Shown in pieces: positions 1 through 14,685 of a stretch of 14,685 nucleotides of DNA. The notes under the pieces are model-generated. The model did no database searches. It was not told the origin of the DNA and saw only the letters and a list, made by a program, of their open reading frames with translations. The position numbers and the translations under genes were made by a program. The stretch is from Crocosphaera subtropica ATCC 51142 (lineage in GTDB: Bacteria > Cyanobacteriota > Cyanobacteriia > Cyanobacteriales > Microcystaceae). The number at the start of each line of letters is the position of its first letter. The first letter of the stretch is position 1. The DNA lies in the NCBI RefSeq assembly GCF_000017845.1, contig NC_010542.1, positions 1 through 14,685 of the forward strand, in the 5' to 3' direction.

Positions 1-37
1 TTTTTTGATCAGCACAATTAATTCTATTAGGAATATT

Positions 38-700: not shown

Positions 701-711
701 TAAAATTATAA

Positions 712-747
712 TAGGTTGAGTATAAGCTATAATTTATACTCAACCTA
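712..747 (+). terminator. 14-bp stem hairpin just downstream of the 38..700 CDS, a possible intrinsic terminator
   Basis: taggttgagtataa (712-725) pairs perfectly with ttatactcaaccta (734-747) around an 8-nt loop. The 3' flank (ttaccaaaatattt) is only weakly T-rich. A second 11-bp hairpin, aatttagagaa / ttctctaaatt, lies at 802-829. Confidence 0.35.
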
Positions 748-1079
748 TTACCAAAATATTTCAAGTTAGATTTGTTAGCTATTGTTAGCTAATCAAAGAA
801 TAATTTAGAGAAAAGAAATTCTCTAAATTCACTAAAATGAATCACCACTAAGTAAAAACATTAAATTTAACCTCATTTTGCACACAATTCTATAGTATAG
901 TTTTAAAAAGCTATAGTAATCTATATCATTTATAACAAATTTTTAGGTTACTTACTATATTACAAAAATGTTACATATTGACAACTTAGATTGCCCCGTA
1001 TGACAGCCTCGCTAGTTTTTCCCCTATTAGTAAGAATTGTTCAGTTAAAAGTTAGCCTTAATTATTAAGGGGATTATGG

Positions 1080-3563
1080 CTAAAAAATATCCCTGGCCCG
1101 AGTCCAACGCATAAGATCAAAAGGAAATTTACCGTCAGGGGTCAATACTTTCACCATTGGTTCTCGATGTTGGTACAGTGGCAAGTGGTGAACCGGTACA
1201 TTCTCCACTAACCCACGGGCGATCTGCTTCTCATACCATTGGAGAAATTCGTCGGTTATTCCTGCCGTCGGGTTAGATAGGTATGGGGATGAGGATGGCT
1301 TAGAGGATGTCTGTGGGGTATTGGTGGCGGTGGTGGGCTTCCATTTCTGCTTGATGGCTTTGACTAGGAAGCCAGCAGGGTTTTTAACTTGTCCCTGGCG
1401 TTTATGCTCTCGTAAGGCTTCTAGGGCGTTTAAGACCACTTCGGAGGTGTTAGATTTAATTAATCGCTCAATGGTGCGGTTAACTTCGATGCCATAATCG
1501 TCACACTTCTCAAGCAGCTTCTTCTTACTCAGTTTTCTGGGTTGGCCATTAGTCGATGATAAAAATTGATTATTATCATGGGATTGGAGATTGCAGATTG
1601 GAGATTTTAGATTGACTCCTGGTTGTTTGACAGAGGTTGGAGATTCATGATTATTGATTTTCCGTTGGTTAGTAGATAATGGTTGATTGTTTTGATCAAT
1701 CTGCAATCTGCCCTCTTCAATCTCCAATGTTTGCTCAATGGTTGGTGATTGATTGGTGGTGTCGTCAACCTGGGGAGCTTCAGGGGTTGATGGAGTCGGT
1801 TCTGTTGTGTCTTCTACTGCGTCAATTTTGCCATTTGACGGGGGTTGATTGGGTTTGGTAATGGATTCATCATTCGATGGGGTTAACTGGGCTATTTCTG
1901 CCATTAACTCGGCTTCTAGGCGTTTGAGGCCATAGGGAATGAATAAGCCAAGATTGAGAAAGGCTTGCTTAGCAGAATGAACCGAAGCGAGACGGTTGGC
2001 TAGGTGATCTGGGAGATCATCGGGTAATTCGGAAAGTTGAACCGGTGCGTCGGAGAGAGGGGGGTCAGTAGGTGGCTTAGATTTTTGGAAAGTTGTGGGA
2101 TTATTTTTTGATTTTTTTTGTGGGTCAAATTCAAGCCCTTCAAAAACTTCATATATAGGGGTATATGATGCACTTTCGCTCTGGCTATGGGTTTCAGCTT
2201 GTTTGGTTGGGGGGGCAGTTTGGTCAGTTTCGGGGCTTTTTTGGGGTTCGGTAATAGATGCTGTTTCCCTCTGGGAATGGGATTGCATCTTTTCTTGATT
2301 GCTTCTGTATTTGGGATGCCACAGTGCTAGATACTTTTTCTGGGATAAGGTTCTGTTTGAAAACCCTGTGCCATATTTTTCTTTGGCTATTTTTATGATG
2401 GCTTGTCTTCTTTCTACTACTTTTTGGGGTAGCTCTCCATTGGCTTCTAGGTGGGCTACTGTTTCAGTAATTCTCTTTTCTATGTCGAGGGTTCTAGGAG
2501 TTTTGTCCATCGACTTATTGTAGGTTTGGTTATAGTTACTGCTTCGGTTGGGATAGTTACAGTAGGGTAGATAATATTCGTTTCTTTCTGTGTAATAACA
2601 GATTTCTTCGATTCGTTGCTCTATTTCGTGTTGGTGGCGACACCATTGATTATATCCTGGGGCGTTGATTACTTCTTCGATGACTGCGGCCCTTAGTTTG
2701 GCTCCTGTTAGTTCTTTGAAGACGATATGATAGGCGACGAATTTTGTTAGTAGGTAGTTGGTTTGGTGGTGTCCTGTCCATCCTAGTTCTAGTAGTTTTT
2801 CTAGGGCTTGTTTCCAGGCGATCGCTGTTGGACTATAGTAAGCTTTTTGCCAGCTTCTTTGGGCTTTGAATTCTTGGTAGGCTACGTCTAAGCGGCTACT
2901 AAAGGTTTCTATGTCTTGTCCTTCGGCGGCCCAGTCCATTTGGTCTAGGAAGTCTTCTACTGAGTCGCTGATGATGTTTAGGTCTTGGTCTAGGAGGTAT
3001 GACCCGCTATTGGGTTGTAATGGGAGGCGTACTCCATTATAACAGCTTTTTTTTCCGTTTTTGGCGTATCTCTTGGGGTTGGGAAAGATTTCTAGTTGCC
3101 CTGTTTTTATTTCTAGTTGGGCTGCTTCTAGGGTGGCTTTGACTAAACAGGCTGTTTTGAAGGTGTGTAGGGGTTCGGGTAGGGCAAATATTAGGTGTAT
3201 GCCTTGACTATCACTTGATTGAATGAGAACGTGACGGCATAGCCCGATGCTTTCTAGGGCTTCTGTTATGGTTTTTATGGCATCAGGGTCGTTGAAAGGG
3301 TGATAGGGGCTGTTTCTATCGATGTCGATGGTTATGTGTCGGGTGGTTGACCCGAACCGTAATCCGATGGTTATCTGAGGATCTTGGTGTTTATCCCAGA
3401 TTTCTCTCGGACTTAGGGGATAAATGTTGATTGTTGTCCATTTATCGTCGATTTCTAAGATAAAGTCCCATCCGTGATGGTAATATTGGGTGAGTCGCTG
3501 TCCGGTGACAGTGCTAGGGGTTAAGTGTTGGTAGTTTTGTTGTTTCCCTGTTTTTTTCTTCAT
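1080..3563 (-). CDS. putative plasmid replication initiator: primase-polymerase (AEP)-like N-terminal domain, long low-complexity linker, conserved C-terminal domain
   Basis: An 827-aa uninterrupted ORF. The N-terminus has an acidic HITIDIDR motif (DxD type) followed by SSDSQGIHLIFAL (sGxH type), the pattern of archaeo-eukaryotic primase / prim-pol-like plasmid Rep proteins. Residues ~430-700 are P/S/T/Q-rich low complexity. The C-terminal block reads VLNALEALREHKRQGQVKNPAGFLVKAIKQKWKP. A HIP1 octamer lies at 2818-2825. The CDS call is strong; the functional call rests on motifs only. Confidence 0.7.
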   Translation of the reverse strand: MKKKTGKQQNYQHLTPSTVTGQRLTQYYHHGWDFILEIDDKWTTINIYPLSPREIWDKHQDPQITIGLRFGSTTRHITIDIDRNSPYHPFNDPDAIKTITEALESIGLCRHVLIQSSDSQGIHLIFALPEPLHTFKTACLVKATLEAAQLEIKTGQLEIFPNPKRYAKNGKKSCYNGVRLPLQPNSGSYLLDQDLNIISDSVEDFLDQMDWAAEGQDIETFSSRLDVAYQEFKAQRSWQKAYYSPTAIAWKQALEKLLELGWTGHHQTNYLLTKFVAYHIVFKELTGAKLRAAVIEEVINAPGYNQWCRHQHEIEQRIEEICYYTERNEYYLPYCNYPNRSSNYNQTYNKSMDKTPRTLDIEKRITETVAHLEANGELPQKVVERRQAIIKIAKEKYGTGFSNRTLSQKKYLALWHPKYRSNQEKMQSHSQRETASITEPQKSPETDQTAPPTKQAETHSQSESASYTPIYEVFEGLEFDPQKKSKNNPTTFQKSKPPTDPPLSDAPVQLSELPDDLPDHLANRLASVHSAKQAFLNLGLFIPYGLKRLEAELMAEIAQLTPSNDESITKPNQPPSNGKIDAVEDTTEPTPSTPEAPQVDDTTNQSPTIEQTLEIEEGRLQIDQNNQPLSTNQRKINNHESPTSVKQPGVNLKSPICNLQSHDNNQFLSSTNGQPRKLSKKKLLEKCDDYGIEVNRTIERLIKSNTSEVVLNALEALREHKRQGQVKNPAGFLVKAIKQKWKPTTATNTPQTSSKPSSSPYLSNPTAGITDEFLQWYEKQIARGLVENVPVHHLPLYQHREPMVKVLTPDGKFPFDLMRWTRARDIF

Positions 3564-4239
3564 TGAAGGGTTCGCTTTGGTGATGTTAGCGAGCTACCCA
3601 TACAGGGAGGATGCTGTCTTATTTAAGTTTTATGGTAGAAGGAAGGAAGATGACGACGGGGTAAGAAAAAAGATCCTTGTCTCAAAAGAAGTTATCCAAG
3701 GATTTGCGATGGTAAACTAAAATGCCCAAACGTCCTATTAGAGAAGGTTCCATCTACAATCCACAATTGCCAATCAGCAAAAAAGTGACTCACTACCTGT
3801 ACGGACAAAACAAAATTAGGTAGTATAAAGACAGCAACCCCCCTCAACCACGCCTACAGTTTTTTTCATGTCGCCAAACAAGAGTTGAGACTGTTAGGTG
3901 ATTTGGGTTGCACCCAAGCTTTCAAAACTTATTCAAACTATTTAAGGCTTTTAGACCGTTTCAAGTTTGTCAAAGCTAAAAAGCTTTAGTTGCGGTTGCT
4001 TTGTCTGTGAGATGTCTATGCAAAGATACACAGATATTCTCTAACCTTAAGCATACTGAAAGATGGGGTAAAAAGCCAGCAAGAATAACCGATGGTTGCA
4101 TTGTCGGGGAGTCTAGGGAGCCTAAAAGCCTTGTGTGATGAAGACTGCGCTGGCTTCAGACTAGAAGGTATGGACTAAGTACATTATCAGAACTAAAGAA
4201 TAGTGAACTAGCCCAACTTGCTATCGCTTAACTCTTATT

Positions 4240-4275
4240 AAAAAAGTCCTCCTGATATCTAAGGAGGACTTTTTA
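4240..4275. terminator. strong bidirectional intrinsic-terminator-like hairpin
   Basis: agtcctcc (4245-4252) pairs with ggaggact (4263-4270) around a 10-nt loop. An A-run flanks it 5' (4240-4245) and TTTT flanks it 3' (4271-4274). It sits at the end of a 738-bp ORF-free region and 27 nt before the PEP-CTERM ORF start. Confidence 0.6.
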
Positions 4276-4301
4276 AACGGCACAAAATGGAGTGAAAGAA
4301 T

Positions 4302-4625
4302 ATGTTTCCAAAAACAGGTGAATTAGTAGAACAACTAAAATTTGTTATTCCAGTAGGAACTCAGTTTCTTGTTAACGATTTAACTGCTAATAATGTTGAT
4401 ATATCTTTGTGTACATCAACTTGTGAGGAAGTTCCTTTCTGGATGACAAACGACGGCAAAATAGATCCTGCTATTAGTGGTTTTGGATTTAAAGATGATC
4501 CAGCAGGTGGAACTTATGATGCGTCATCAATTACTACGCAAAAAGCCCCTGAACCTGGTACTATTCTCGGACTTCTTGCTATCAGTGGTTTAGGTTTAGG
4601 ATTAAAACGCAAAAAGCAATCATAA
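4302..4625 (+). CDS. PEP-CTERM domain protein with no recognisable N-terminal signal peptide
   Basis: The C-terminus KAPEPGTILGLLAISGLGLGLKRKKQS has PEP, a hydrophobic span and a basic cluster, which is the PEP-CTERM/exosortase sorting signal. GGAG at 4289-4292 lies upstream of the ATG. An in-frame TGA at 4293-4295 prevents any N-terminal extension. Confidence 0.7.
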   Translation: MFPKTGELVEQLKFVIPVGTQFLVNDLTANNVDISLCTSTCEEVPFWMTNDGKIDPAISGFGFKDDPAGGTYDASSITTQKAPEPGTILGLLAISGLGLGLKRKKQS

Positions 4626-4654
4626 TTAATATTTAGCTAGAAAATTGCAGTATG

Positions 4655-4697
4655 ACCGCCTAGAATCCTTGTTCTAAACTAGGCGGTTTCGTTTTTT
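4655..4697 (+). terminator. intrinsic terminator after the PEP-CTERM gene
   Basis: accgcctag (4655-4663) pairs with ctaggcggt (4679-4687). The stem is followed by tttcgtttttt. Confidence 0.6.
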
Positions 4698-4743
4698 GTT
4701 AATAACGTAAAACTAATTTTTTTTTTTGGAGTTAACTTTTAAA

Positions 4744-4772
4744 GAAAAAAATATCCTTAGAAGGATATTTTT
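4744..4772. terminator. A-run / hairpin / T-run, a bidirectional terminator candidate downstream of the relaxase gene
   Basis: aaaaaaa atatcctt ag aaggatat tttt. The stem is 4751-4758 / 4761-4768. It lies ~135 nt beyond the relaxase stop on the minus strand. Confidence 0.45.
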
Positions 4773-4907
4773 AAAAAATATATTTTTTTGAGGAGTTTTT
4801 CAATCAAAGTTAAATGATTGATTAACCCTTAAATCAATTTTATCAAGAATAACGGAAGCTAACTGCCCAATAGGAGGGAATTTTTGCCAGCTAGTACATC
4901 TGTTGAT

Positions 4908-6644
4908 TCAACGAGAAAAACCCCGACCCCGACAACGTTGCTTTTCTCGTTGTTCAAAATCGCGTTGTAATTGAGCGATGCGCTGGCTAATTTGTGAGTC
5001 AACATCGTGAATCATTTTTCTATCCTCATCGGTTAAATTAGCTGTTACTTTGCCGTCTTTCCGTTCAAAGATTAAGCCCCGTCCATCTTTGGCGTGTAAC
5101 TCCATAGTTTGTTTATCAGTTGAAAGCTTGAAAATGTAGCGTTTCCCTTCATAAGTGCTAAAACCGTTTTTAGGTTTGGCTTTGACATAACGCATTAAGC
5201 GAATAGCAGTCGAAACAACTATCACGTTATTGAAGTCCTGTTGACGTTGTTCAGGGGTTAAGGACTGTTTTTCTCCATTCGATTGAGCTTGATTTCGATG
5301 TTGTTGACTCGTCCGTTGATTTTCTCCAGTTGGTGACTGTTGGGGGGAAGGAGTTTGATTAACATCCAAGTTCCGAGACTGGAGGTTATCAGAATCAGTC
5401 CTATCAATTTTAGGAGAGTTAGGGGACGGAACATTATCACGTTGTCGAGGTGTTTTTTGGTTTCCTGTTTCTCGTACTGTGCTGCCTTCCAAATGAGACG
5501 ATAATTTTCGTTCAGTTCGTTTATCAGGTAGGTTAAATTGCTCTGAACTTGTTTGAGATTTTGATGATGAAGTTGGTCGTTTTTGTTGAGTTGATTTTCT
5601 AGATTTTCGAGTTTTTCTGCCATCGTTTCCAAGACGGTTACTAAGGTCTTGTAATCGCTGTCGGTTTTCATCTGCTTGTCGATTAGACTCGATAACAGCT
5701 TCGTTAATTCTTCGTAGCTCTGCTGTGAGATCGGCTTCTGAATCTTCTGACCGTTCCCGTTCATCTCCATCATTATTTATCCTGTGAGTCGTCAAGTTTT
5801 GAGATAATTCTAACGTTGTTTTATCGATGTCTGCATCAGCATCAACTGTTAGCAGAGATGAGTTTTTTGCTGAGGAGTTTTGAATGAGAAGCGTTTCAGA
5901 TTTGATACTATTTTCTACGGTAACTAATTGTTTTTCGAGGGCTTCGATTTGCTCGTTTGTGGTTTTAATTTCTAAATATTCGTCACCTCGTTCTGTAGCG
6001 ATGCCTCGTTTCATCATAGCTGCTACATTTGCCCCTAAATGAATCTGAGGTATGCGAGAAATGTTTTGTTCTTTTAAGCTTCGATGATCTATTTTTTCAG
6101 AACTACCGATACTTTCTAAAGCATCGTTTGTATAGGTTGCCCAACTTTCTCTAAGCTTCAATAAAAAGTCTTTTTTATCTAAGGATCTATCTTTAGCTCC
6201 TAGTCCATTTTCATCGACAATTCTGGTGGTAATCATGATGTGGACGTGAGGATTATGGGTATTTATTTCATGAAAAGCGAGATCCGCAACTAGCCCCTTA
6301 TCGACAAAGTTATCTTGAGCAAAGTTTCTGACTAATTCTTGCTTTTGGGGGTGGGTAAGTTCAGTGGGGAGAGCGATGTCAAATTCTCTAGCGGTACGAG
6401 AGTTAGAACGTTTTTCAAAGAGTTCGGCTGCGTTCCAAAGTTGAGAACGATCTGCCATCCAATTAGGGGCATTATGTGGGGTTAAGATTTCGGTAGCATA
6501 CACACCTTTTTTACGGGTGTAATTGAAGGTTTCGCCGATGCGTAGATCATGTATTTTTTCAGCAGCACGATAGGCAGCCGCTTCGGTAGCTGACTGTCCA
6601 TTACTACGGGATATTATTTTGGCATTGAGATGGTAGATAGCCAT
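4908..6644 (-). CDS. mobA: MOBQ-family relaxase (MobA/MobL)
   Basis: The N-terminus MAIYHLNAKIISRSNGQSATEAAAYRAAEKI is the MobA/MobL motif I with the catalytic Tyr. HEINTHNPHVHIMITTR is the histidine-triad motif (H..NPHxH). The middle third is S/T/Q/R/N/P-rich low complexity. The last ~110 aa form an unassigned structured domain. Divergent oriT and mobC lie upstream, as in RSF1010. Confidence 0.95.
   Translation of the reverse strand: MAIYHLNAKIISRSNGQSATEAAAYRAAEKIHDLRIGETFNYTRKKGVYATEILTPHNAPNWMADRSQLWNAAELFEKRSNSRTAREFDIALPTELTHPQKQELVRNFAQDNFVDKGLVADLAFHEINTHNPHVHIMITTRIVDENGLGAKDRSLDKKDFLLKLRESWATYTNDALESIGSSEKIDHRSLKEQNISRIPQIHLGANVAAMMKRGIATERGDEYLEIKTTNEQIEALEKQLVTVENSIKSETLLIQNSSAKNSSLLTVDADADIDKTTLELSQNLTTHRINNDGDERERSEDSEADLTAELRRINEAVIESNRQADENRQRLQDLSNRLGNDGRKTRKSRKSTQQKRPTSSSKSQTSSEQFNLPDKRTERKLSSHLEGSTVRETGNQKTPRQRDNVPSPNSPKIDRTDSDNLQSRNLDVNQTPSPQQSPTGENQRTSQQHRNQAQSNGEKQSLTPEQRQQDFNNVIVVSTAIRLMRYVKAKPKNGFSTYEGKRYIFKLSTDKQTMELHAKDGRGLIFERKDGKVTANLTDEDRKMIHDVDSQISQRIAQLQRDFEQREKQRCRGRGFSR
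5258..5773 (-). CDS. alternate-frame ORF nested inside the relaxase gene; candidate mobB-like overlapping gene (coiled coil plus C-terminal TM helix)
   Basis: A 171-aa ORF on the same strand as mobA, offset by one frame (6644-5773 = 871 nt). It lies exactly over the low-complexity part of the relaxase. Its own sequence is not low complexity: it has heptad-like LENLENQLNKNDQLHHQNLKQVQSNLTYLINELNENY and a hydrophobic LTLLKLIGLILITSSLGTWMLIKLL. AGGA lies 6 nt upstream of the first ATG (minus-strand ACAGGATAAATAATG). In RSF1010/R1162, mobB is nested in mobA in another frame. Confidence 0.45.
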   Translation of the reverse strand: MMEMNGNGQKIQKPISQQSYEELTKLLSSLIDKQMKTDSDYKTLVTVLETMAEKLENLENQLNKNDQLHHQNLKQVQSNLTYLINELNENYRLIWKAAQYEKQETKKHLDNVIMFRPLTLLKLIGLILITSSLGTWMLIKLLPPNSHQLEKINGRVNNIEIKLNRMEKNSP

Positions 6645-6883: not shown

Positions 6884-7495
6884 ATGACTAAAAAGTTAGA
6901 AAAATTACTAGAGCAACGGGAGAAGATTAACGCACGGATACAGAAGGCGAGAGCGAGGGAGACAGCACAGAAAAGGAAGGAAGATACGAGACGAAAGATT
7001 TTACTAGGGGCGTTGGTGATAGAGATGATGGATAAGGGGGAATTAGATGATGGGGTTATTATGAAAAGATTAGAGGGATTTTTGACGAGAGATATTGATA
7101 GAAAGTTGTTTGATTTTCCTGTACAGGGAGATAGTGATTCAACGGAAACGACATCAGATAAAAAGCCTACATCTTCTAAGAAAACTACTGAGTCAAAGGG
7201 GGCTAAGAAGGGGTCAAGTGCGTCTCAAAGTAGTGAGGGAAAAATAGCTGATTTAATTAGAACAGAAGTAGAGGGATCATCGGTTGAGATTATTTTAGAA
7301 GAGTACCCTTCAGATCAGAAAATGGCTATTCTCAGAACAGTGAGAGAAGTTACTAACTTAGGACTTAAAGAGGCCAAAGATTTAATTGAGTCAACACCTT
7401 GTGTAATTCACAAAACGACTCAATCATCAGCTGATGGTGCTAAGAAAAAATTAGAGAAGTTTGGGGCTAAGGTGAGTTTAAAAGTTGATAGTTAA
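6884..7495 (+). CDS. mobC: MobC-type relaxosome accessory protein fused to a ribosomal bL12 (L7/L12) C-terminal-like domain
   Basis: Residues 1-80 ([41 protein letters not shown]...[14 protein letters not shown]) resemble RSF1010 MobC. Residues 81-130 are an S/T/K-rich linker. Residues ~131-200 ([67 protein letters not shown]) align with the E. coli RplL C-terminal domain. A good SD is present. Confidence 0.85.
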   Translation: [203 protein letters not shown]

Positions 7496-7499
7496 AAGT

Positions 7500-7634
7500 T
7501 TAGGGGTCAAAGGCTTTTGAGAAAGCTTCTGTGATGGGTTCAATTTGAAGGTCTTTGAGACGGGTATAAACGGCAGAACGGGCGATGCCGTAACGGTTGG
7601 GGAGTTGGGATAAGGGAATGCGGTCAATTTCCAT
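7500..7634 (-). CDS. 44-aa helix-turn-helix mini-protein, an excisionase/regulator-like candidate or gene remnant
   Basis: My own translation, below the track threshold: MEIDRIPLSQLPNRYGIARSAVYTRLKDLQIEPITEAFSKAFDP. The segment GIARSAVYTRLK is a typical HTH recognition-helix pattern. The start lies 13 nt from repeat copy A. There is no clear SD. Confidence 0.3.
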   Translation of the reverse strand: MEIDRIPLSQLPNRYGIARSAVYTRLKDLQIEPITEAFSKAFDP

Positions 7635-7646
7635 CTTGGTTGCGTA

Positions 7647-7692
7647 CTGGACTGTCTAGGACAGATTAGGTTAACGGTTGGGTAATTGTTCC
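7647..7692 (+). repeat. module-boundary repeat, copy A
   Basis: ctggactgtctaggacagattaggttaacggttgggtaattgttcc. It shares the blocks CTrGAC-N-GTCTAGGACA, GGTTAAC and AATTGTTC with copies B and C. By my hand count it matches copy C at about 35 of 46 positions without gaps. Confidence 0.8.
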
Positions 7693-7771
7693 AAAACAGA
7701 AATATTTAAGTTAAGAAAACCAAGTTTATAGTTAAAATTTATGTATTAGCTAAATAAGAGGAGAATTAAAC

Positions 7772-7978
7772 ATGAGCATTGAGCAACAGGATTTTGATGA
7801 CAAGCCAGAATGGTTAGTATCTGTCCTAAAAGAATTGGAAGCCTATGATAAAATGGGAAAGGAAGACAAAAAAAAGACTTTTCAAGAATTGGAGAAACGG
7901 ATAAAGAAAGAAGCTCTCTTAGAAGAACAAGTAGAAAATCTGGGAAAAAATTACTTGAACAACCAGGATAAAAATTAA
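7772..7978 (+). CDS. hypothetical 68-aa charged, likely helical protein
   Basis: A strong SD (aagaggag) lies 7-8 nt upstream of the ATG. It sits 6 nt upstream of the next ORF, giving operon-like spacing. No family recognised. Confidence 0.55.
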   Translation: MSIEQQDFDDKPEWLVSVLKELEAYDKMGKEDKKKTFQELEKRIKKEALLEEQVENLGKNYLNNQDKN

Positions 7979-7984
7979 GAAAAA

Positions 7985-8449
7985 ATGATGAATTTAAAGG
8001 AACAGAGTAAAGAAAAATTTTTAACGACTGAAGAGATTCAAGTTTTGTTCAACGATGGATTCACCAGTGAACAAGAGCGGGTTTTCTTTGGGGTTATGTT
8101 GTTTACGGGCTGTCATTTACATGAAGCTTGTGCCTTAGAAACGGCTGATGTTTATGATGAATCTGGTTTGGTTAGGGATGGGATCATTATTAGGAATAAG
8201 AATACCTTAAAAACAAGAATCATCCCCGTGTGTGAACCATTAAGGAAACTGTTGAGCAAATACAGTTTAAATCGTCAGGAACGTTACTTATTTCCTGAAG
8301 AGTCAGGGGGACATATTCAGTCTAAAACTGCGTCTAGAATCTTGAAAAAAGCCTGTGAAAAAGTGGGTCTTCTTAACGTTGATACCAATATTTTTAGAAA
8401 AACAATGGTTGCTCAAATGATGAATAGGAAAACCCCTTTTATATCATAG
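7985..8449 (+). pseudogene. degenerate, C-terminally truncated paralogue of the small tyrosine recombinase
   Basis: It aligns with the 11734..12339 product: LTTEEIQVLFNDGF vs LTSDQISLLFTEGF, and YLFPEESGGHIQSKTASRILKKACEKVG vs NLFPGRHGRGHIHKASADRILRGICKKLE. The catalytic Arg context AARINEA is replaced by GCHLHEA, and HSFRRT is replaced by NIFRKT. The ORF stops before the GH...Y nucleophile segment. Confidence 0.6.
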
Positions 8450-8466
8450 ATATCTAGAAAAATACC

Positions 8467-8631
8467 ATGAAAATCGATTTAACATCAGAACAAATTCATT
8501 ACTTGAAGTATTTGGTTTTGAAAGGAATAGCTGAAGCGAAAGAAGCATCGGCACCTGAGAGCCAAAAAATTTATGAGACGATTCTCTTGGCTTTAGATCA
8601 AGAAGTTAGAGAAGAAAATAATCTGAACTGA
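8467..8631 (+). CDS. hypothetical 54-aa protein
   Basis: My own translation: MKIDLTSEQIHYLKYLVLKGIAEAKEASAPESQKIYETILLALDQEVREENNLN. There is no obvious SD. Its stop codon abuts the 38-bp duplicated segment. Confidence 0.3.
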   Translation: MKIDLTSEQIHYLKYLVLKGIAEAKEASAPESQKIYETILLALDQEVREENNLN

Positions 8632-8665
8632 GTTCTAATAGGTAATCATCGGGATTAAGATTAAC
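8628..8665 (+). repeat. 38-bp segment nearly identical to 10052-10090 (duplicated 3' end of the RHH/HTH gene)
   Basis: ctgagttctaataggtaatcatcgggattaagattaac vs tgtgagttctaataggtaatcatcggggttaagattaag. On the minus strand both encode ..NLNPDDYLLEL... Around 8600-8720 the frame is broken by stops upstream, so this copy is a remnant. Confidence 0.8.
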
Positions 8666-8747
8666 TTTCATAAGAAATACTGTAGTCCAGCCAATTCGCT
8701 TTTGTTAGATAAATCAGCTAGAAAACTATTTATGTTAGATAAGACAA

Positions 8748-9341
8748 ATGGTAAAATTAAGACTGGAGAATCTAGAAAGAACGAGATTTAATTGCTGTAA
8801 AAAAAAGATGAATCAAAGAGAGCTTTCGGAAAAAGAATTTAATCAATATCACGACTTAAACAAAGTCAAAGAATCTCTAAAGTTGTTTGTTAAACATAAC
8901 TCGATTTTTGAAAACTCTTATCAAGATGAGGATGAGATTTGGAGGGATTATAAAACCAATATAGAATCATTAGAAATCGAGGAGATAAGTATAGAATATA
9001 AAGAAGAGAGTGCGGAATGCACCGCCGCTTTCCAGCCTGAAGTCACTTCAGGCTGGGTCGGCGGTAACATTAATTATAATGATATTACCTGCTATGATTT
9101 CGTAGCTAGTTTTAGCGTTGATTTAACGATAGAATTTGATTATTATCTGGGACCTAATTATACTCAAAAAGCTAGTTTTAAGAAAAACTCTAAAGATTCA
9201 GTCACAGTTTGTTTTACTTTTGATGAAGATTTTGATTTCAAATTAGAGTGGTGGGAATTTGAAAACAGCTATCTTGGAGATCCTGAATATGAAAAAGCCT
9301 ATGACTTGCTAGTAGATTGGTTATCTTTTAGTACCAGCTAA
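8748..9341 (+). CDS. hypothetical acidic protein (197 aa)
   Basis: A long ORF in AT-rich DNA. By my count it has about 40 D/E versus 22 K/R. The start is uncertain (alternative ATG at 8808) and there is no clear SD. It contains an in-frame GC-rich palindrome at 9021-9065. No family recognised. Confidence 0.55.
   Translation: MVKLRLENLERTRFNCCKKKMNQRELSEKEFNQYHDLNKVKESLKLFVKHNSIFENSYQDEDEIWRDYKTNIESLEIEEISIEYKEESAECTAAFQPEVTSGWVGGNINYNDITCYDFVASFSVDLTIEFDYYLGPNYTQKASFKKNSKDSVTVCFTFDEDFDFKLEWWEFENSYLGDPEYEKAYDLLVDWLSFSTS
9021..9065. repeat. 45-nt GC-rich nested palindrome lying in frame inside an AT-rich ORF
   Basis: accgccg ctttc cagcctgaagt c acttcaggctg ggt cggcggt. The inner stem is 12 bp (9032-9043 / 9045-9056) and the outer stem is 7 bp (9021-9027 / 9059-9065). 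It starts on a codon boundary, spans exactly 15 codons and encodes TAAFQPEVTSGWVGG. Confidence 0.8.
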
Positions 9342-9355
9342 GAAAATTAGCTATT

Positions 9356-9393
9356 CTGGACTATCTAGGACAGATTACGTTAAGTATTGTTCC
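9356..9393 (+). repeat. module-boundary repeat, copy B (shorter)
   Basis: ctggactatctaggacagattacgttaagtattgttcc. It is nearly identical to copy A over the first 26 nt and lacks ~8 nt of the spacer before ATTGTTCC. Confidence 0.8.
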
Positions 9394-9439
9394 TTCGTAC
9401 TAATAAAGTGGTTTATGGTAGTTAGTACATTAAAACTAA

Positions 9440-9889
9440 TTAAGATAACTCCATAATTCTTGCCCATATTGGAGTTTCTTCTTCTGAAGACTTCCAAACA
9501 GCTTTATCTAATTCTTCTTGTTCTAAAGGATGACCATACCCATGTTCAAAAAGGTTAAAACTTCCATCGGGATCTAAATATGCTTCTTGAATTAAAACTT
9601 CACTCAAATCTAAAGTTTCTTCTTCATTATCTTCTTGATAAAACTCTTTTTGTAAATAAGTATAGAAATAAAAATGTTGACGAGCGACCCCGGTCGGGTT
9701 CCCCGACCTTGGGAACGCGCGGTGACACTCTTCTACATCATCGGCTTGGAATATAGCTCTAATAAAAACATCATTTTCTGAACAAATATATCCCTCGGAT
9801 TCTTGATATTCTATTACATGATTGACTTTTCCTTTGGCATAATTTAAAGCGGCTTCAATTACTTTTGATAGGTTAGCAGTTTTTAACAT
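9440..9889 (-). CDS. hypothetical strongly acidic protein (149 aa)
   Basis: AAGGAAG lies ~12 nt upstream of the ATG. By my count it has about 30 D/E versus 12 K/R. It contains a GC-rich palindromic patch (plus-strand 9684-9726) encoding ..HRAFPRSGNPTGVARQ... No family recognised. Confidence 0.65.
   Translation of the reverse strand: MLKTANLSKVIEAALNYAKGKVNHVIEYQESEGYICSENDVFIRAIFQADDVEECHRAFPRSGNPTGVARQHFYFYTYLQKEFYQEDNEEETLDLSEVLIQEAYLDPDGSFNLFEHGYGHPLEQEELDKAVWKSSEEETPIWARIMELS
9684..9726. repeat. GC-rich patch with overlapping inverted repeats inside an AT-rich ORF
   Basis: ggtcggg (9692-9698) pairs with cccgacc (9702-9708), and gttccc (9698-9703) pairs with gggaac (9711-9716). The local GC content is far above that of the surrounding gene. 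Confidence 0.6.
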
Positions 9890-9939
9890 AATTCAGACTT
9901 CCTTATAGTGGCGAGGCGAGTTTTTACAGGGGATATATC

Positions 9940-9985
9940 CTAGACAGTCTAGGACAAACAAGGTTAACTTGCGGGGAATTGTTCA
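9940..9985 (+). repeat. module-boundary repeat, copy C
   Basis: ctagacagtctaggacaaacaaggttaacttgcggggaattgttca. It contains the near-perfect palindrome cctagac a gtctagg (9939-9953). It overlaps the stop codon of the 9983..10579 ORF and lies ~50 nt upstream (minus sense) of the 9440..9889 start. Confidence 0.8.
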
Positions 9986-10579
9986 CTCATCATCATCAGG
10001 GGCATCTGATGAGGGAAAATAACGACGTTGAGAAGGGGGTTTGTGCCACCCTGTGAGTTCTAATAGGTAATCATCGGGGTTAAGATTAAGTCGAGAAGCC
10101 CATTGATTTATTTGGCTTGAAGTTAGGTTAATCTTTTTACAAAGGTCGGTTTTTGTTAGACCTTCACTTATTTCTGTATCGGAACAAGTAAACTCTATGT
10201 TTCCTCTAGGGATGTCTTCAAATTTCTCCTTTAGAGAAGATAAACCTGTATTTATAAGAGCTTGTCTAAGTTGGTCAATTTCTGTTCTTAGGGACTCTAT
10301 CTCATCAGTAAACTCAGATTCTTGTTCAGCTACAGTAGCAGATAAGTCGTCTATTTCCGTGGTTTTAACTTTCAAGTTTTTGACTTCTTCTTCGAGTGTC
10401 TCTGGTAGCACTTCGGTAGGAATATTCCCCTCAAGGTAATGCTCAAGGATAATAACTAAGGCTTGAGATACCTTTTTTATTTTGTGAGTCTTCATCCAGG
10501 TTTCTAGACTGCTGTATAGGCTTAAATCTAGATAGGCTGTGACTTTAGCGTGATTCTTTAACCATTCGTTGGTAGCCAT
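9983..10579 (-). CDS. ribbon-helix-helix N-terminus, acidic coiled coil and C-terminal HTH-like domain; putative regulator or centromere-binding protein
   Basis: KVTAYLDLSLYSSLETWMKTHKIKKVSQALVIILEHYL fits a beta-strand/helix/helix RHH (CopG/Arc/ParG-like) pattern. The middle is EEEVKNLKVKTTEIDDLSATVAEQESEFTDEIESLRTEIDQLRQAL. The C-terminus GLTKTDLCKKINLTSSQINQWASRL is HTH-like. The gene sits directly downstream of the AT-rich repeat field. Confidence 0.65.
   Translation of the reverse strand: MATNEWLKNHAKVTAYLDLSLYSSLETWMKTHKIKKVSQALVIILEHYLEGNIPTEVLPETLEEEVKNLKVKTTEIDDLSATVAEQESEFTDEIESLRTEIDQLRQALINTGLSSLKEKFEDIPRGNIEFTCSDTEISEGLTKTDLCKKINLTSSQINQWASRLNLNPDDYLLELTGWHKPPSQRRYFPSSDAPDDDE
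10052..10090 (+). repeat. partner of the 8628-8665 duplication, within the intact gene
   Basis: See 8628-8665. Here the segment is part of the intact 9983..10579 reading frame. Confidence 0.8.
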
Positions 10580-10950
10580 TACTCTTTTATATAAAATTAA
10601 ATAACTTAAAGTCCTCTGTAGTTTAACTAATTTAACTTAAATTAAGTTACTACATTAATTATAGTATAATACTATTTAATTAAGTAGCGCATCAATAAAA
10701 AGTTTAAATTATAAAGTAAGGTACTTAATTAAATTAGTAATTAATTTTACTAAACTACATAAATATTAGTATATTACTTAAATAAACAATTAGTAAATTG
10801 ATATAGATTAACTACTTAGTATAATACTGTAAGTAACTTAAGTAAAGTAACTTAAGTAAAGTAATTTAAAGTAGTAAATGTAGATTGAGTATTGTTGTAT
10901 AACACTTAATTTTATATAGTAAGGTACTTTAAGTTACTCTAGTAAACTAC
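10580..10950. repeat. extremely AT-rich repeat field; candidate oriV or centromere/operator region
   Basis: No ORFs. The palindrome agtat-a-atact within tagtataatact occurs at 10662-10673 and 10817-10828, and both copies contain TATAAT. The inverted repeat taactta aat taagtta lies at 10633-10649. The core gtaactta occurs at 10834-10841 and 10848-10855, and its complement taagttac at 10643-10650 and 10930-10937. agtaaggtactt occurs near 10706 and 10919. Confidence 0.6.
10831..10880 (+). repeat. about 3.5 tandem copies of a 14-nt unit (iteron-like)
   Basis: aagtaactt | aagtaaagtaactt | aagtaaagtaattt | aaagtagtaaatg. The two full units are at 10840-10853 and 10854-10867. Confidence 0.75.
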
Positions 10951-10991
10951 TAATGCTGAAACCTTTATAGGGAGAGGGTTTAAAAAATAAA

Positions 10992-11089
10992 GCAGCCTGG
11001 AACCGACTGAAGCGAGTGGAGCGTAGCGGAACGAGTGGAAGGAGGTGGAGAGGCTGCACTAGGGGGGTGTGGGGGGAGACATCCCCCCA
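10992..11089. repeat. GC-rich island with terminal inverted repeats, internal direct repeats and a G6/C6 hairpin
   Basis: gcagcct (10992-10998) pairs with aggctgc (11051-11057). cgagtgga is repeated at 11013-11020 and 11032-11039. tgggggga (11070-11077) pairs with tcccccca (11082-11089) around a 4-nt loop. There is no convincing ORF on either strand. Confidence 0.6.
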
Positions 11090-11249
11090 TATCATCTACA
11101 AAAGTTTTAAAAGTTAAAAGAAGCGTGTTTTAGATGCTAAGTGCATAACTAGGATACTTCAAACCTAAATGAATTTAATAGCAACATTTAGTTGCTGGCA
11201 TCGGAGAAAACAATCTTTGTACAAACTACCAGTTAGTGAGAAAAAGGAA

Positions 11250-11733: not shown

Positions 11734-12339
11734 CTAAAAATCCAGGGTAGAGATCGCGTGTTGCTTCTGCTTATCCGTGACCCCTAGATAGCGTTCGAGG
11801 GCGGCTAAGGTACGATGACCTGAGATAGCTTGGATGTGTCTGAGAGGAACACCAGCATCACTCATTTGGGTCAAAGCGGTACGTCGGAAGCTGTGGGTAC
11901 TGACTCCTTCGATTTCCAGCTTTTTACAGATGCCTCTGAGAATGCGGTCAGCACTGGCTTTATGAATGTGGCCACGTCCATGACGGCCTGGGAAAAGATT
12001 CGGGTTATATTTATTGAGAGATGGGTATGAGTCTTGATATTCCTGTAAATATTGAGTTAGACGGGGGTGTATATCAATTTCTCTAGTGTCTTGTTTTCCT
12101 TTGGTGTTGAAACTGCGGATAACAAGTTTTTCCCTGATACCTTTGATGCCGATCACATCACCATAGAAGAGGGTAACAGCTTCATTAATACGGGCTGCTG
12201 CGTAGAGACAGATGCCGAATAAAGCTTTATCTCTTGGATTAAGGAAGCCTTCGGTGAATAATAGAGATATCTGATCAGATGTGAGGATTTCAGCGCGGCC
12301 ATAGCGGTTTACTTTCATAAAAGTATTGTACGCTGTCAT
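11734..12339 (-). CDS. tyrosine recombinase, catalytic domain only (~200 aa)
   Basis: The full catalytic signature is present in order: AAARINEA (Arg), NTKGKQ (Lys), HSFRRT (His-x-x-Arg), SGHRT (His), LERYLG (Tyr nucleophile). There is no N-terminal SAM-like core-binding domain. Confidence 0.9.
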   Translation of the reverse strand: MTAYNTFMKVNRYGRAEILTSDQISLLFTEGFLNPRDKALFGICLYAAARINEAVTLFYGDVIGIKGIREKLVIRSFNTKGKQDTREIDIHPRLTQYLQEYQDSYPSLNKYNPNLFPGRHGRGHIHKASADRILRGICKKLEIEGVSTHSFRRTALTQMSDAGVPLRHIQAISGHRTLAALERYLGVTDKQKQHAISTLDF

Positions 12340-12523
12340 AGATAAGTTTAATAACGTAGAAGCATTGAAAGCCCATCACATGGTTGTTACAGCAACAGGA
12401 GTTTAGATTTTCTTATCATTTCACTTTAAGATTCCTGAGTATTAACACTCAAACGATAAGTTTTATTTATATAGTCAAGGAACGGGTTAAACGTTTTGAA
12501 AATGGAACAGGAGGAAAGGATTG

Positions 12524-12790
12524 ATGGAAAGTCTCAAGATACGCTCCCGTGTGGATGCTGATGGAGTTGTGCGCTTACAAGTTCCTGTGGAGTTAGCCAA
12601 CTCAGAAATTGACTTAGTGGTGGTTTATCAAACAGTGGAAAAGAGCAGAGAATCAAAGGAGTCTAAAACCGCTACTGAATTAGGCTATCCCGAAGATTTT
12701 TTTGATTCGACTTTTGGTTGTTGGGAAGGGGAACCTTTAACCAGAGGTGAACAAGGGGAATGTGACCAAAGACGTTGGGATCTACTGTGA
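12524..12790 (+). CDS. vapB: VapB-type antitoxin
   Basis: A small ORF directly upstream of the PIN toxin and overlapping it. AGGAGG at 12509-12514 precedes the ATG at 12524 by 9 nt (the track uses TTG at 12521). It has a beta-rich N-terminus (IRSRVDADGVVRLQVPVEL) and an acidic tail GYPEDFFDSTFGCWEGEPLTRGEQGE, typical of cyanobacterial PIN-partner antitoxins. Confidence 0.8.
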   Translation: MESLKIRSRVDADGVVRLQVPVELANSEIDLVVVYQTVEKSRESKESKTATELGYPEDFFDSTFGCWEGEPLTRGEQGECDQRRWDLL

Positions 12791-13188
12791 TTTATCTACT
12801 CGATACTAATACTTGTATTCAATATTTGACCGGTAGAAGTCCTGCGGTAATGGCTCGCTTCAAGAGGGTGAGACGGGTTGAGATCGCTTTGTGTGATGTG
12901 GTCAAGGCCGAACTTTACTATGGGGCTAACAAGAGTTCACGTCGTGAGGCCAATCTAGCTTTATACGAACGTTTTTTTAGTCAATATGTGAGTTTACCTT
13001 TTGATGGCACGGCGGCCATTATTTATGGTCGCCTCAGAGCAACCCTTGAAGCTGTGGGGCAACCCATTGGCCCCTATGACCTAATGATTGCTGCGATCTC
13101 ATTAGCCAATAATTTAATTTTAGTGACTCATAATGTTGATGAGTTTAGCCGTGTCGAAGGGTTAACGATTGAAGATTGGGAAGTGTGA
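12787..13188 (+). CDS. vapC: PIN-domain ribonuclease toxin VapC
   Basis: IYLLDTNTCIQYL (first acidic residue), VVKAELYYGA, GPYDLMIAAISL and LVTHNVDEF together form the PIN acidic quartet pattern. I prefer the GTG at 12787, which overlaps the antitoxin stop as GTGA (translational coupling). The track starts at TTG 12775. Confidence 0.9.
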   Translation: MIYLLDTNTCIQYLTGRSPAVMARFKRVRRVEIALCDVVKAELYYGANKSSRREANLALYERFFSQYVSLPFDGTAAIIYGRLRATLEAVGQPIGPYDLMIAAISLANNLILVTHNVDEFSRVEGLTIEDWEV

Positions 13189-13307
13189 ACAGCTAGAACG
13201 AGGGCGTGTATAGTTGTGAGAAGCTATCAGGAGCAACCTATTATCACACTAAAGCCAAGCGATCTCTAGTGACCTCATAAAAGGTTTAATTACACAAAGT
13301 TCCCAAC

Positions 13308-13331
13308 AAAAAACCCCGTCAAATGACGAGG
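13308..13331 (-). terminator. intrinsic terminator for the 13368..13565 gene
   Basis: The minus strand reads cctcgtca tt tgacgggg tttttt. It has a 7-8 bp stem with one G-U pair, followed by a T6 run. Confidence 0.6.
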
Positions 13332-13367
13332 TAAATAACAAGAGAAGACGGTCATTGAAAACTGTAA

Positions 13368-13565
13368 TTAACGACCAAGCTTTTGAGAATAAGAAACGAG
13401 TCCAGCACTAACAACTTGACCATAGTTGTTGAGGCGATCTTGTTGTCCGGTGCGAGTGGGGGCAAAAAATGTATCGGTTAGGCCCATTGAAGCGAACATG
13501 ACGGTAGCAGCGAGAATGATGTAGTTGCGGACGATGGTGGTGTTGTTGGTGGTGGTGTTTAACAT
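13368..13565 (-). CDS. small single-TM membrane protein (65 aa from the internal ATG)
   Basis: The track ORF is 13368..13598. The ATG at 13565 is preceded by AGAGG ~9 nt upstream. The TM segment is YIILAATVMFASMGL. An intrinsic terminator follows. Confidence 0.5.
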   Translation of the reverse strand: MLNTTTNNTTIVRNYIILAATVMFASMGLTDTFFAPTRTGQQDRLNNYGQVVSAGLVSYSQKLGR

Positions 13566-13884
13566 TTGTTTGACCTCTGTTCCTCTTGTTACCTTCATAT
13601 TACGGGGTCGTCAAGGGTGATGTCAGTCCCAAAAGTAAGGTATATTCAGGGTTTTCACGATTCCCTTTATGGATGAGAAGTGGAATTAAGTAGAAAATAT
13701 TGCCCTTCTTTAACCTATTCACTTCTTCTGAGTTTCCCCTCAGTCATTGATAAGTTTTTGCTCTCTAATCTTTGATAAGTACGTCTAATGGATACTATTA
13801 AAATTAATCTGTCAAGCTCTCTTTACAGATTGTTACATTTACTGTTACAATTATTTACATAGAGAGCCATCGGAGGCAACACGG

Positions 13885-14055
13885 ATGTACACCACCCAAC
13901 TTGATAACGGACTTACCAACACCTACGCCGTTGAAACCAAGCCTTACTATGCTGAATATCCTGCGCCCTATCAACAACGTCGCTACTTAATTCAAGGGGC
14001 TGTCGCTGCATTATTCGTCACCAGCTTAGTAATGGTATCGGCTGTTATTAGCTAA
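13885..14055 (+). CDS. small tail-anchored membrane protein (56 aa)
   Basis: My own translation: MYTTQLDNGLTNTYAVETKPYYAEYPAPYQQRRYLIQGAVAALFVTSLVMVSAVIS. GGAGG at 13873-13877 lies 7 nt before the ATG. Upstream are TTTACA (13822-13827) and TACAAT (13846-13851) with an 18-nt spacer. A terminator follows. Confidence 0.55.
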   Translation: MYTTQLDNGLTNTYAVETKPYYAEYPAPYQQRRYLIQGAVAALFVTSLVMVSAVIS

Positions 14056-14098
14056 GAATTCATCTCTTGCTTGACAATTTTTGGATTTCTCCCGTTTG

Positions 14099-14122
14099 AC
14101 CTCAGATAGTCTGGGGTTTTTT
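14099..14122 (+). terminator. intrinsic terminator after the 56-aa ORF
   Basis: acctcaga (14099-14106) pairs with tctggggt (14110-14117) with one G-U pair. It is followed by tttttg. Confidence 0.55.
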
Positions 14123-14415
14123 GCTGTTTCTCTCTATGTTGATCTTTATTAATCTATTTCTAGCTGGCTTGATTATGTTTTCAAAGTTTTGTTGACCGAA
14201 ATGATCCTCATCAACTTCTCAGATAACTCAATTAACTCTTATTCAATATTCACAATTGGCGTTTGGGTAGAATCTGTAATAAAAACCCCGTTAAGGTTTG
14301 ACCATCACAATGATTATAAAATTTTTCTTAAGCGAGCTTTCGTCTATTTATGAACCTAGTTATCATTACATTCGGACTATATTTAGTTTTACTTTTATAG
14401 ATTAATAAAGTGACA

Positions 14416-14685
14416 ATGAAACGTAATATGAAGCTTATTAAAGAAATTTTATTAATGATTGAGAATGAAGAAACTCAAAAAGATGCAATTTTTAAAAAAT
14501 ATAGTAAAAAAGAAGTCTATTATCATAATTATTTAATTTATAAAGCTGGCTTAATTGAAGGAAATAATCACCTTTTAGAGAAAGATGCTTACCATGAAAA
14601 TTGGAATTTTCCTATTATTTGTCCAACAATAATTACTTGGTCCGGCTATGATTTTTTAGAAACAATTAGAGATAAAGATTTTTGA
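14416..14685 (+). CDS. DUF2513-like small protein
   Basis: MKRNMKLIKEILLMIENEE...YHNYLIYKAGLIEG...ITWSGYDFLETIRDK resembles the DUF2513 pattern as I remember it (MKRDMDLIRKILL..E......L...GLI......LTW.GH.FL). The track starts at GTG 14410. The stop TGA is the last three bases of the window. The gene has very low GC. Confidence 0.55.
   Translation: MKRNMKLIKEILLMIENEETQKDAIFKKYSKKEVYYHNYLIYKAGLIEGNNHLLEKDAYHENWNFPIICPTIITWSGYDFLETIRDKDF

Follow-up and report, generated by a model that had tools for sequence, protein, structure and literature searches.

A conserved short repeat at accessory-module junctions of a small Crocosphaera plasmid: a candidate tyrosine-recombinase site

Why does a small cyanobacterial plasmid carry the same short sequence three times among its accessory genes? 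The DNA analysed here (the window) is a small plasmid in its entirety (14,685 bp), from Crocosphaera subtropica ATCC 51142, a strain formerly assigned to Cyanothece; by its gene content the plasmid is mobilizable. It contains a repeat, called R here, in three copies of the same orientation: R-A (7647-7692), R-B (9356-9393) and R-C (9940-9985). An earlier sequence-only reading had taken R to divide the accessory region into modules left by serial insertion at one site, and had also named an integron-like platform, operators and single-strand initiation hairpins. We favour the reading that R is a tyrosine-recombinase-type crossover or resolution site marking module boundaries, analogous to the dif modules of Acinetobacter, and give it a probability of about 0.45, somewhat below even odds. 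Full-text searches of the literature on cyanobacterial plasmid cassettes with tyrosine recombinases and on Cyanothece 51142 plasmids did not find the element described.

The three copies of R are real. An unbiased repeat search ranked R first among the direct-repeat families of the window (7647-7691, 9356-9400 and 9940-9984; 73-78% identity over 45 nt), and a 28-nt degenerate consensus, CTRGACNRTCTAGGACARAYNANGTTAA, matched the three R sites only, all on the plus strand, with 0 matches expected from 200 shuffles. Direct matches over 28 nt reached 26/28 between R-A and R-B and 23/28 between R-A and R-C, which equals or exceeds the best match of 21-23 found in 30 dinucleotide shuffles. The repeat search, the consensus scan and the shuffle tests thus bear out the three same-orientation copies of the sequence-only reading, and the sequence blocks that it had listed are present in the copies. 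The palindrome it had seen in copy C is perfect over 17 bp (TCCTAGAC-A-GTCTAGGA, 9938-9954). Its description of the gene content held as well: the open reading frames (ORFs) between R-A and R-B are all on the plus strand (68, 154, 54 and 197 aa), a single minus-strand ORF (149 aa, isoelectric point (pI) 4.5) lies between R-B and R-C, and an intact small recombinase of 201 aa (Int; 11734-12339, minus strand) is found 1.75 kb from copy C. The similarity between the copies reaches 4 nt farther left than first noted, to 7643, 9352 and 9936, and these starts are used in Table 1.

A 21-bp quasi-palindrome, TGTCCTR-GACNRTC-TAGGACA, makes up the left half of R; it is built of two arms and a central heptamer (7-7-7). 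The right arm TAGGACA is invariant across all copies seen, and the left arm is degenerate in R-A and R-B. To the right of this core follows an asymmetric extension of about 12-25 nt with (T)TAnGTTAA, to which most copies add a G-run and then ATTGTTC. R-B is without about 6-8 nt of this extension that are still kept in its orthologue in the related locus L021, where the extension has its full length, and the extension of R-C overlaps the stop codon of the neighbouring 198-aa gene. The pattern agrees with the generic layout of a tyrosine-recombinase core site, two inverted arms around a crossover region of 6-8 bp. The central heptamer, which reads GACGATC in relatives, is the same in orthologous copies (R-B and L021; R-C and copy C1 of the related locus L026) and differs among the paralogous copies of one plasmid. 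When the palindrome is read as 10+1+10, the arms agree at 9/10 positions in R-C, at 8/10 in L021 and in the relatives labelled V1, at 7/10 in R-A and at 6/10 in R-B.

Table 1. Features of the plasmid around the three R copies (positions in the window)
Feature	Position	Strand	Description
MobA/MobL relaxase	4908-6644	-	
L12-CTD/TraD-like gene (CTD, C-terminal domain)	6884-7495	+	
44-aa ORF adjoining R-A	7500-7634	-	start 12 nt from R-A; doubtful gene
R-A left flank, 24 nt	7623-7646	+	common to the single R of relatives; minus strand carries TTGAC and the ATG of the 44-aa ORF
R-A	7643-7692	+	left arm CGTACTG (7643-7649), heptamer GACTGTC (7650-7656), right arm TAGGACA (7657-7663), extension GATTAGGTTAACGGTTGGGTAATTGTTCC; nhmmer 45.3 bits
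Module 1	7693-9351	+	R-A to R-B: promoter-like segment, split Int2', 54-aa ORF, copied fragment of the 198-aa gene, 197-aa gene
56-nt segment	7700-7755	+	100% identical to L026 65-120; promoter-like TTAAGA-16-TAAAAT at 7711-7738
Int2'	7772-8449	+	in-frame stop at 7976-7978, giving a 68-aa N-terminal and a 154-aa ORF; Pfam 9.3e-12; 32% identity to Int
36-nt copy of the near-3' coding part of the 198-aa gene	8629-8664	-	97% identical, 27/28 best match; original at 10054-10089
197-aa acidic ORF	8748-9341	+	177 aa in the NCBI annotation; homologues in unrelated contexts without R
R-B	9352-9393	+	left arm TATTCTG, heptamer GACTATC (9359-9365), right arm TAGGACA (9366-9372), shortened extension
Module 2 (149-aa acidic ORF)	9440-9889	-	pI 4.5; L021 and L026 homologues are placed likewise with respect to R-B and R-C
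R-C	9936-9985	+	left arm TATCCTA, heptamer GACAGTC (9943-9949), right arm TAGGACA (9950-9956); orthologue at L026 1911-1956
198-aa backbone gene	9983-10579	-	conserved core up to residue 189, then a variable tail
Int	11734-12339	-	201-aa Xer-like tyrosine recombinase, catalytic domain only; Pfam Phage_integrase 7e-18
827-aa primase-like protein			
VapBC			

Two exact-pattern scans, the first over species-representative genomes and the second over metagenomes, yielded nothing but relatives of the plasmid, four in number (L011-L014). L011 is a Crocosphaera metagenome-assembled genome and L012 is a 14,032-bp contig with overlapping ends, apparently a complete circle. These relatives share 88-92% identical DNA with the window over the relaxase, the L12-like gene, the 198-aa-type gene, the intergenic region and Int; outside these parts the plasmids are unrelated, and this holds for the replication region too. 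Each of them holds one R, flanked by a minus-strand 138- or 140-aa gene and by the 3' end of the counterpart of the 198-aa gene, which encodes 222 aa in them. The L12-like gene and the 198-aa-type gene are about 600 bp apart in the relatives and 2,516 bp apart here. Their single R is chimeric. Its left flank is of the R-A type (L011 1466-1517 against window 7623-7674, 52 nt, 88% by BLAST), its body is of the R-B type (31/32 by BLAST; 29/32 in register including 4 left-flank nt), and its right side runs into the gene that follows R-C. The 2.25 kb between R-A and R-C are therefore extra in the window and are bracketed by repeat copies. Serial insertion at one site, as the sequence-only reading had supposed, or cointegration there predicts relatives with a single copy and extra DNA between copies, as found.

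Further arrangements, among them L021 and L026, were obtained by exact-protein look-ups. The order in L021 is the L12-like gene, a 114-aa ORF, a 68-aa ORF, Int2 (203 aa), 13 nt, a full-length R of the B type and a minus-strand 134-aa gene. L026 has a DUF7736 gene, Int2, a 55-aa ORF, a minus-strand 134-aa gene, R-C1, a 37-nt spacing, a second copy resembling R-C (R-C2) and a minus-strand 207-aa gene. Other loci carry Int2 without R (L023-25, L027-28) or the 197-aa gene without R (L029-32). Module 1 as a block is absent from the V1 and V2 relatives, and its sub-blocks occur separately in L021, L023, L026 and L029-32. Wherever an arrangement holds both, R adjoins the 3' end of the 198-aa-type gene. 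In a 32-nt register (4 flank nt plus the 28-nt core) R is identical at 31/32 positions between V1 and L021 and at 30/32 between R-B and L021, with flanks that are unrelated or only 84-90% identical. That R is better conserved than its surroundings argues for a function.

Megablast with the window returned no near-identical plasmid in PLSDB, and a 70-nt R query gave zero blastn matches. No R-like site was detected by nhmmer and pattern scans on the Chondrocystis (L019, L020) or Nostoc (L001, L002) plasmids that carry a related Int or 198-aa protein. Scanning viral contigs for R gave four matches, all by chance and otherwise dissimilar to the window.

We compared the ends of homology with the position of the repeats. 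L021 departs from the window at the left edge of R-B, and among homologues of the 197-aa gene the homology ends at 9350, 5 nt before R-B. Homology to L026 resumes at 7700, 8 nt after R-A, and the 780-bp deletion of L026 (8627-9406 of the window) has its right end 13 nt after R-B. Several relatives thus lose homology within 0-13 nt of an R edge. Junctions without R were found at 7622/7623, 11092, 11735, 12473 and 4907, at the left end of the L026 deletion and around the L013 insertion (114-aa plus 70-aa), and these weigh against a recombination site as the sole agent of change. R appears to be enriched at junctions, yet other routes of change exist. The claim that the repeats bound the modules is upheld by the single copy in relatives and by the extra DNA between the copies, but part of the variation is not bounded by the repeat. 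In the same way, gain and loss of modules exactly at the repeats fits several junctions at R edges and fails for several others away from R.

The candidate enzyme is Int. It contains the R, H-x-x-R, H and Y motifs of the catalytic domain (AARINE, HSFRRT, GHRTLAALERY), and its Pfam match covers positions 4-170 of the 172-position model. XerA, XerC and XerD were its best NCBIfam matches, none of which reached the cutoff. Cyanobacterial plasmids commonly carry an Int homologue; in PLSDB 465 plasmids do. Int and R are linked in the window and in the V1 relatives (96% amino-acid identity), and one R with its own recombinase is seen in L012 (Int 96% identical); the window has three R, and L013 and L026 have R without Int nearby.

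Module 1 carries a second recombinase-like gene, Int2', in which the first catalytic arginine is replaced by His, the second-motif histidine by Asn, and the His/Tyr segment is missing; a tblastn search with Int2 of L021 spans 7787-8446. The sequence-only reading had called it a decayed paralogue. It belongs instead to a conserved Xer-like family of about 203 aa (Int2, 60-85% identical), of which 13/13 members end before the catalytic His/Tyr segment. Because all 13 stop there, the pattern suggests a non-catalytic role for Int2, e.g. DNA binding or as a partner of a recombinase. Int2 is not needed for R, since L012 has R and Int without Int2.

The favoured reading would work as follows. R would be a conserved cis-acting protein-binding site that acts as a site-specific recombination site, its layout corresponding to a tyrosine-recombinase core site plus an accessory arm. 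The normal state would be one R per plasmid at the 3' end of the 198-aa gene, serving multimer resolution or the formation and resolution of cointegrates. The reaction would be carried out by a Xer-type tyrosine recombinase, either the 201-aa Int of the plasmid or, possibly, one of the host. Other replicons or circles bearing R would have recombined with the plasmid and, after deletions, left extra modules beside the resident site, so that three copies resulted. Inside module 1, the fragment of the 198-aa gene lies at the left end of the 780-bp block missing from L026; it fits a cointegrate that later underwent deletions. Because their central heptamers differ, the copies would be poorly compatible, and this would explain why three direct copies coexist in a stable array. 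R may have a second role as an operator, as res has in Tn3. The sequences directly show the repeat, its conservation, the single copy in relatives, the coincidence of junctions with R and the palindrome; that a recombinase binds, where the crossover falls, which enzyme acts and that the copies are incompatible are features that we infer. A more specific version holds that module exchange is plasmid-encoded, with the minimal Int, possibly together with Int2 and the 198-aa protein, acting on the 7-7-7 sites and the heptamers serving as compatibility codes, which would make it an independent cyanobacterial counterpart of the dif modules; this version is possible but doubtful.

Several observations speak against a recombination site. 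L013 and the 7-kb L026 contig both have R, yet Int has been replaced in the former and is missing from the latter; plasmids of Chondrocystis and Nostoc with a 72-77% identical Int lack an R-like site; and R, contrary to the standard layout, does not adjoin Int but lies 1.75 kb away. An equally good reading of the palindrome has arms spaced by 1 bp, which is typical of operators. The tandem R-C1 and R-C2 of L026, 37 nt apart, are no simple recombination product, and the heptamers of R-A and R-C differ, so these two copies are not the untouched products of one recent insertion. Logan contigs from six ATCC 51142 read sets cross all three R copies at 100% identity, with no break and no heterogeneity at R, and the population variation at repeat boundaries that the sequence-only reading had asked for was not seen in these sets.

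The contender to be weighed most seriously against a recombination site, less likely in our view but of substantial weight, is that R is the operator of a dimeric regulator, most plausibly the 198-aa protein, with each copy controlling a neighbouring promoter and the modules being shuffled by homologous or illegitimate recombination aided by short conserved islands. A 21-bp quasi-palindrome, perfect over 17 bp in R-C, suits such a role, and so does the stability of three direct copies in the strain. R lies 13-50 nt upstream of a minus-strand gene in 4/6 contexts (the 44-aa ORF; the 149- and 134-aa genes; the 138- and 140-aa genes), the V1 relatives have a perfect TTGACA-16-TAATAT between R and the ATG, and R-A is 19 nt from a promoter-like site on the plus strand. 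Nevertheless, promoter-like sites are not enriched in the region (9 against 11 expected), and R does not keep a constant position with respect to the starts and ends of genes. R is linked to a 198-aa-type gene in every context tested, more steadily than to Int, and on Nostoc plasmids with a 75% identical protein the corresponding region has arrays of GACAG-type motifs that are oriented alike. The 198-aa protein, a putative DNA-binding protein, gave no usable match in family and PDB sequence searches. R-B sits between the convergent 197- and 149-aa genes in the window and between convergent genes in L021, two places with nothing to regulate, and is conserved at 30/32 positions all the same; its conservation in these two contexts does not fit a regulatory role. 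The loss of homology on both edges of R and the chimeric R of the relatives would also need an extra assumption.

The copies could instead be functionless relics, duplicated bits of an old junction or of the 3' end of a gene in mosaic plasmids, which we regard as improbable. The region is highly mosaic, and other relics exist: a 36-nt piece copied from the 198-aa gene and, in L013, a 21/22-nt R fragment. Translated on the plus strand, R gives L-D-x-L-G-Q, which is similar to E-R-Y-L-G around the catalytic Tyr of Int; CTATCTAGG is common to R-B, L021 and the codons for E-R-Y-L-G in Int. Where the flank of R-A departs from that of V1, it does so at third codon positions only. A relic would, however, hardly be better conserved than its flanks in unrelated contexts (31/32 and 30/32 against 84-90%) or keep the same backbone position in 6/6 arrangements. 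R as a coding remnant of a recombinase 3' end was considered and rejected: the orthologous R-C and L026-C1 differ by a frame-breaking indel, and 13/13 Int2 members end before the segment concerned, so that it is required by none of these genes. Least probable of all, and very improbable in our view, is that R forms attC-type hairpins or single-strand initiation or promoter hairpins on the transferred strand. Judged from gene order, the region is on the side of the relaxase and the origin of transfer (oriT), where a leading region is expected, and copy C can form a 7-bp hairpin (z = -2.4 to -2.6). The single-strand DNA of copies A and B folds no better than shuffles (z -0.5 to +0.5), so that an initiation hairpin, as the sequence-only reading had offered, is not a common property of the copies (z about 0 in A and B). 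Rfam had no match in the window, the cassette orientations are mixed, and Int is not an integron integrase: it scored 21.7 bits against a cutoff of 265 for the NCBIfam integron integrase TIGR02249, and the integron-like platform was not supported.

The genes beside R were searched for family membership. The 198-aa protein and the cassette proteins gave nothing usable in Pfam, NCBIfam, PHROGs and PDB sequence searches, and the AlphaFold2 single-sequence model of the 198-aa protein (predicted local distance difference test score, pLDDT, 58) was too poor for structure searching. The protein may be DNA-binding; this function is putative only, and the ribbon-helix-helix/helix-turn-helix (RHH/HTH) label is that of the sequence-only reading and not a result of the searches. 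Other cyanobacterial plasmids (L032 2330-3085; Gloeothece PCC 7424 plasmids) have the C-terminal half of the 198-aa protein (about aa 81-189) joined to a GIY-YIG nuclease domain. Upstream of the gene (10620-10950) are AT-rich repeats of the AAGTTAC/TAAGTAA type, direct and inverted, which could be an autoregulatory operator or an origin; similar repeats occur upstream of the Nostoc homologues. The 44-aa ORF next to R-A, described as an excisionase-like HTH protein, had zero family matches in Pfam, NCBIfam and further protein family searches and corresponds to an 8-codon ORF in relatives, with the first 4 codons alone conserved; the excisionase label was not sustained.

The plasmid family is strongly mosaic. 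Positions 1-4906 and 12474-14685 of the window, which include the gene of the 827-aa primase-like protein, have almost no nucleotide similarity to L012 3908-12060. With the rest 88-92% identical to L012, the block of mobilization genes, 198-aa gene and Int and the replicon have therefore been exchanged as units. On the Nostoc plasmids (198-aa-type protein 75% and Int 72% identical) this gene pair is kept, toxin-antitoxin pairs and cassettes around it vary, and R is absent. Short direct-repeat arrays of the GACAG, GACAC(C) or GGGAC type follow there after a duplicated remnant of the 3' end of the type IV coupling protein (T4CP) gene, and arrays and remnant flank variable cassettes beside the homologue of the 198-aa gene (L002 5560-5700 and 6470-6750; L001 6630-7190).

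Upstream of Int lies a 130-bp element (12344-12473) with the palindrome TGAGTAG-TT-CTACTCA, which is retained in L013 despite the replaced Int; no element upstream of Int was found to be conserved across genera. Directly after it, at 12473/12474, the plasmids have three different toxin-antitoxin cassettes: VapBC here, an MNT/HEPN-like one in V1 and a DUF433 one in L013. This site is a second hot spot of module swapping, and the toxin-antitoxin pair of the Nostoc relatives also varies at this position. At about 412-433 of L013, which corresponds to window position 12474, there is a 21/22-nt fragment derived from R, TGTCCTAGA followed by GGATTTGACAA, in which the right arm of R is joined to the V1 leader left of R. 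The fragment is inverted and marks the 5' end of the DUF433 cassette.

Within module 1, the L026 counterpart of the 56-nt segment is located upstream of the DUF7736-Int2 operon, and the neighbouring homologous DNA is just 84-89% identical. GC-rich hairpin-forming inserts of about 54 and about 48 nt (9018-9071 and 9683-9730) lie in frame inside the AT-rich 197- and 149-aa genes, and the homologues of these two proteins elsewhere are 18 and 15-16 aa shorter and lack the inserts. Assembly contigs of ATCC 51142 break inside the second insert (9680-9708), which is therefore a dispersed genomic repeat, similar to a miniature inverted-repeat transposable element, that is tolerated in coding sequence. 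A third GC-rich island is intergenic (10989-11102) and recurs in L023.

Should R prove to be a recombination site, module shuffling by short Xer-type sites on small plasmids, for which to our knowledge Acinetobacter is so far essentially the only documented case, would gain a second, independent example. Cyanobacteria, whose mechanisms of plasmid mosaicism are poorly known, would have their first system of this kind. Crocosphaera/Cyanothece is a model of nitrogen fixation with few genetic tools, and a compact 201-aa recombinase with naturally heterospecific sites would be a possible tool there. If R is only an operator, it is an ordinary finding, a repeated regulatory site of a plasmid.

Among known systems, the multimer-resolution systems loxP/Cre of P1, rfsF/ResD of F and cer/XerCD of ColE1 offer one comparison. 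Like these sites, R occurs once per plasmid in the relatives, is accompanied by a plasmid-borne recombinase and has inverted arms around a short centre, where heterology blocks recombination. It differs in lying 1.75 kb from the recombinase gene, in being triplicated here and in its asymmetric extension, and it is known here from sequence alone. Repeated operators of plasmids, such as the KorB OB sites of RK2 and the omega heptads of pSM19035, and the dual-role res of Tn3 are also palindromes found at several places, some in promoter regions, with a conserved putative DNA-binding gene adjacent to R in our case. In contrast to them, one R copy is located between convergent genes, the copies coincide with homology breakpoints, and the regulator here is only a candidate. 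With attI/attC of integrons R shares repeated sites that part gene modules beside a tyrosine recombinase and a sharp loss of homology at one site edge. However, there is no IntI-type integrase (the 201-aa Int is without the IntI-specific domain) and, whereas attC sites form imperfect hairpins on one strand, no such hairpin in copies A and B, and the 46-nt R sites are alike in sequence and not in structure alone. Integron cassettes are for the most part single promoterless genes in one orientation that follow the Pc promoter, whereas module 1 has four plus-strand ORFs and module 2 one minus-strand ORF.

The dif modules of Acinetobacter are the closest parallel. A pdif site (TTATGTTAAAT-like) is 28 bp long, with a spacer of 6 bp between a XerC arm and a XerD arm of 11 bp each, and the identity of the central spacer decides which sites recombine (PMC13141974). 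As an instance of such a site R was rejected: the extension of R-B, TTACGTTAAGT, fits 9/11 positions of the XerD arm (PMC13141974), which is a lead only, and there is no XerC-type partner arm 6 bp away. The pdif sites have the 11-6-11 form with distinct XerC and XerD arms, and neighbouring sites alternate in orientation, giving C and D modules, whereas R has the 7-7-7 form with a one-sided extension and all copies are direct, on the plus strand. They use the XerCD of the host; this plasmid encodes its own recombinase of the catalytic domain only, and the host is a cyanobacterium. Recombination at pdif has been demonstrated experimentally, and that at R is predicted from the sequence. The two nevertheless resemble each other in their setting. 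Both the Acinetobacter Rep_3 plasmids and the plasmid studied here are small, and on both short Xer-type-looking sites delimit accessory modules, often of toxin-antitoxin or unknown small genes (PMC13141974, PMC6449649). In both the backbone is common and the content of the modules differs, cointegrates are the proposed route of exchange, and the sites differ mainly in their spacer (PMC13141974, PMC6449649).

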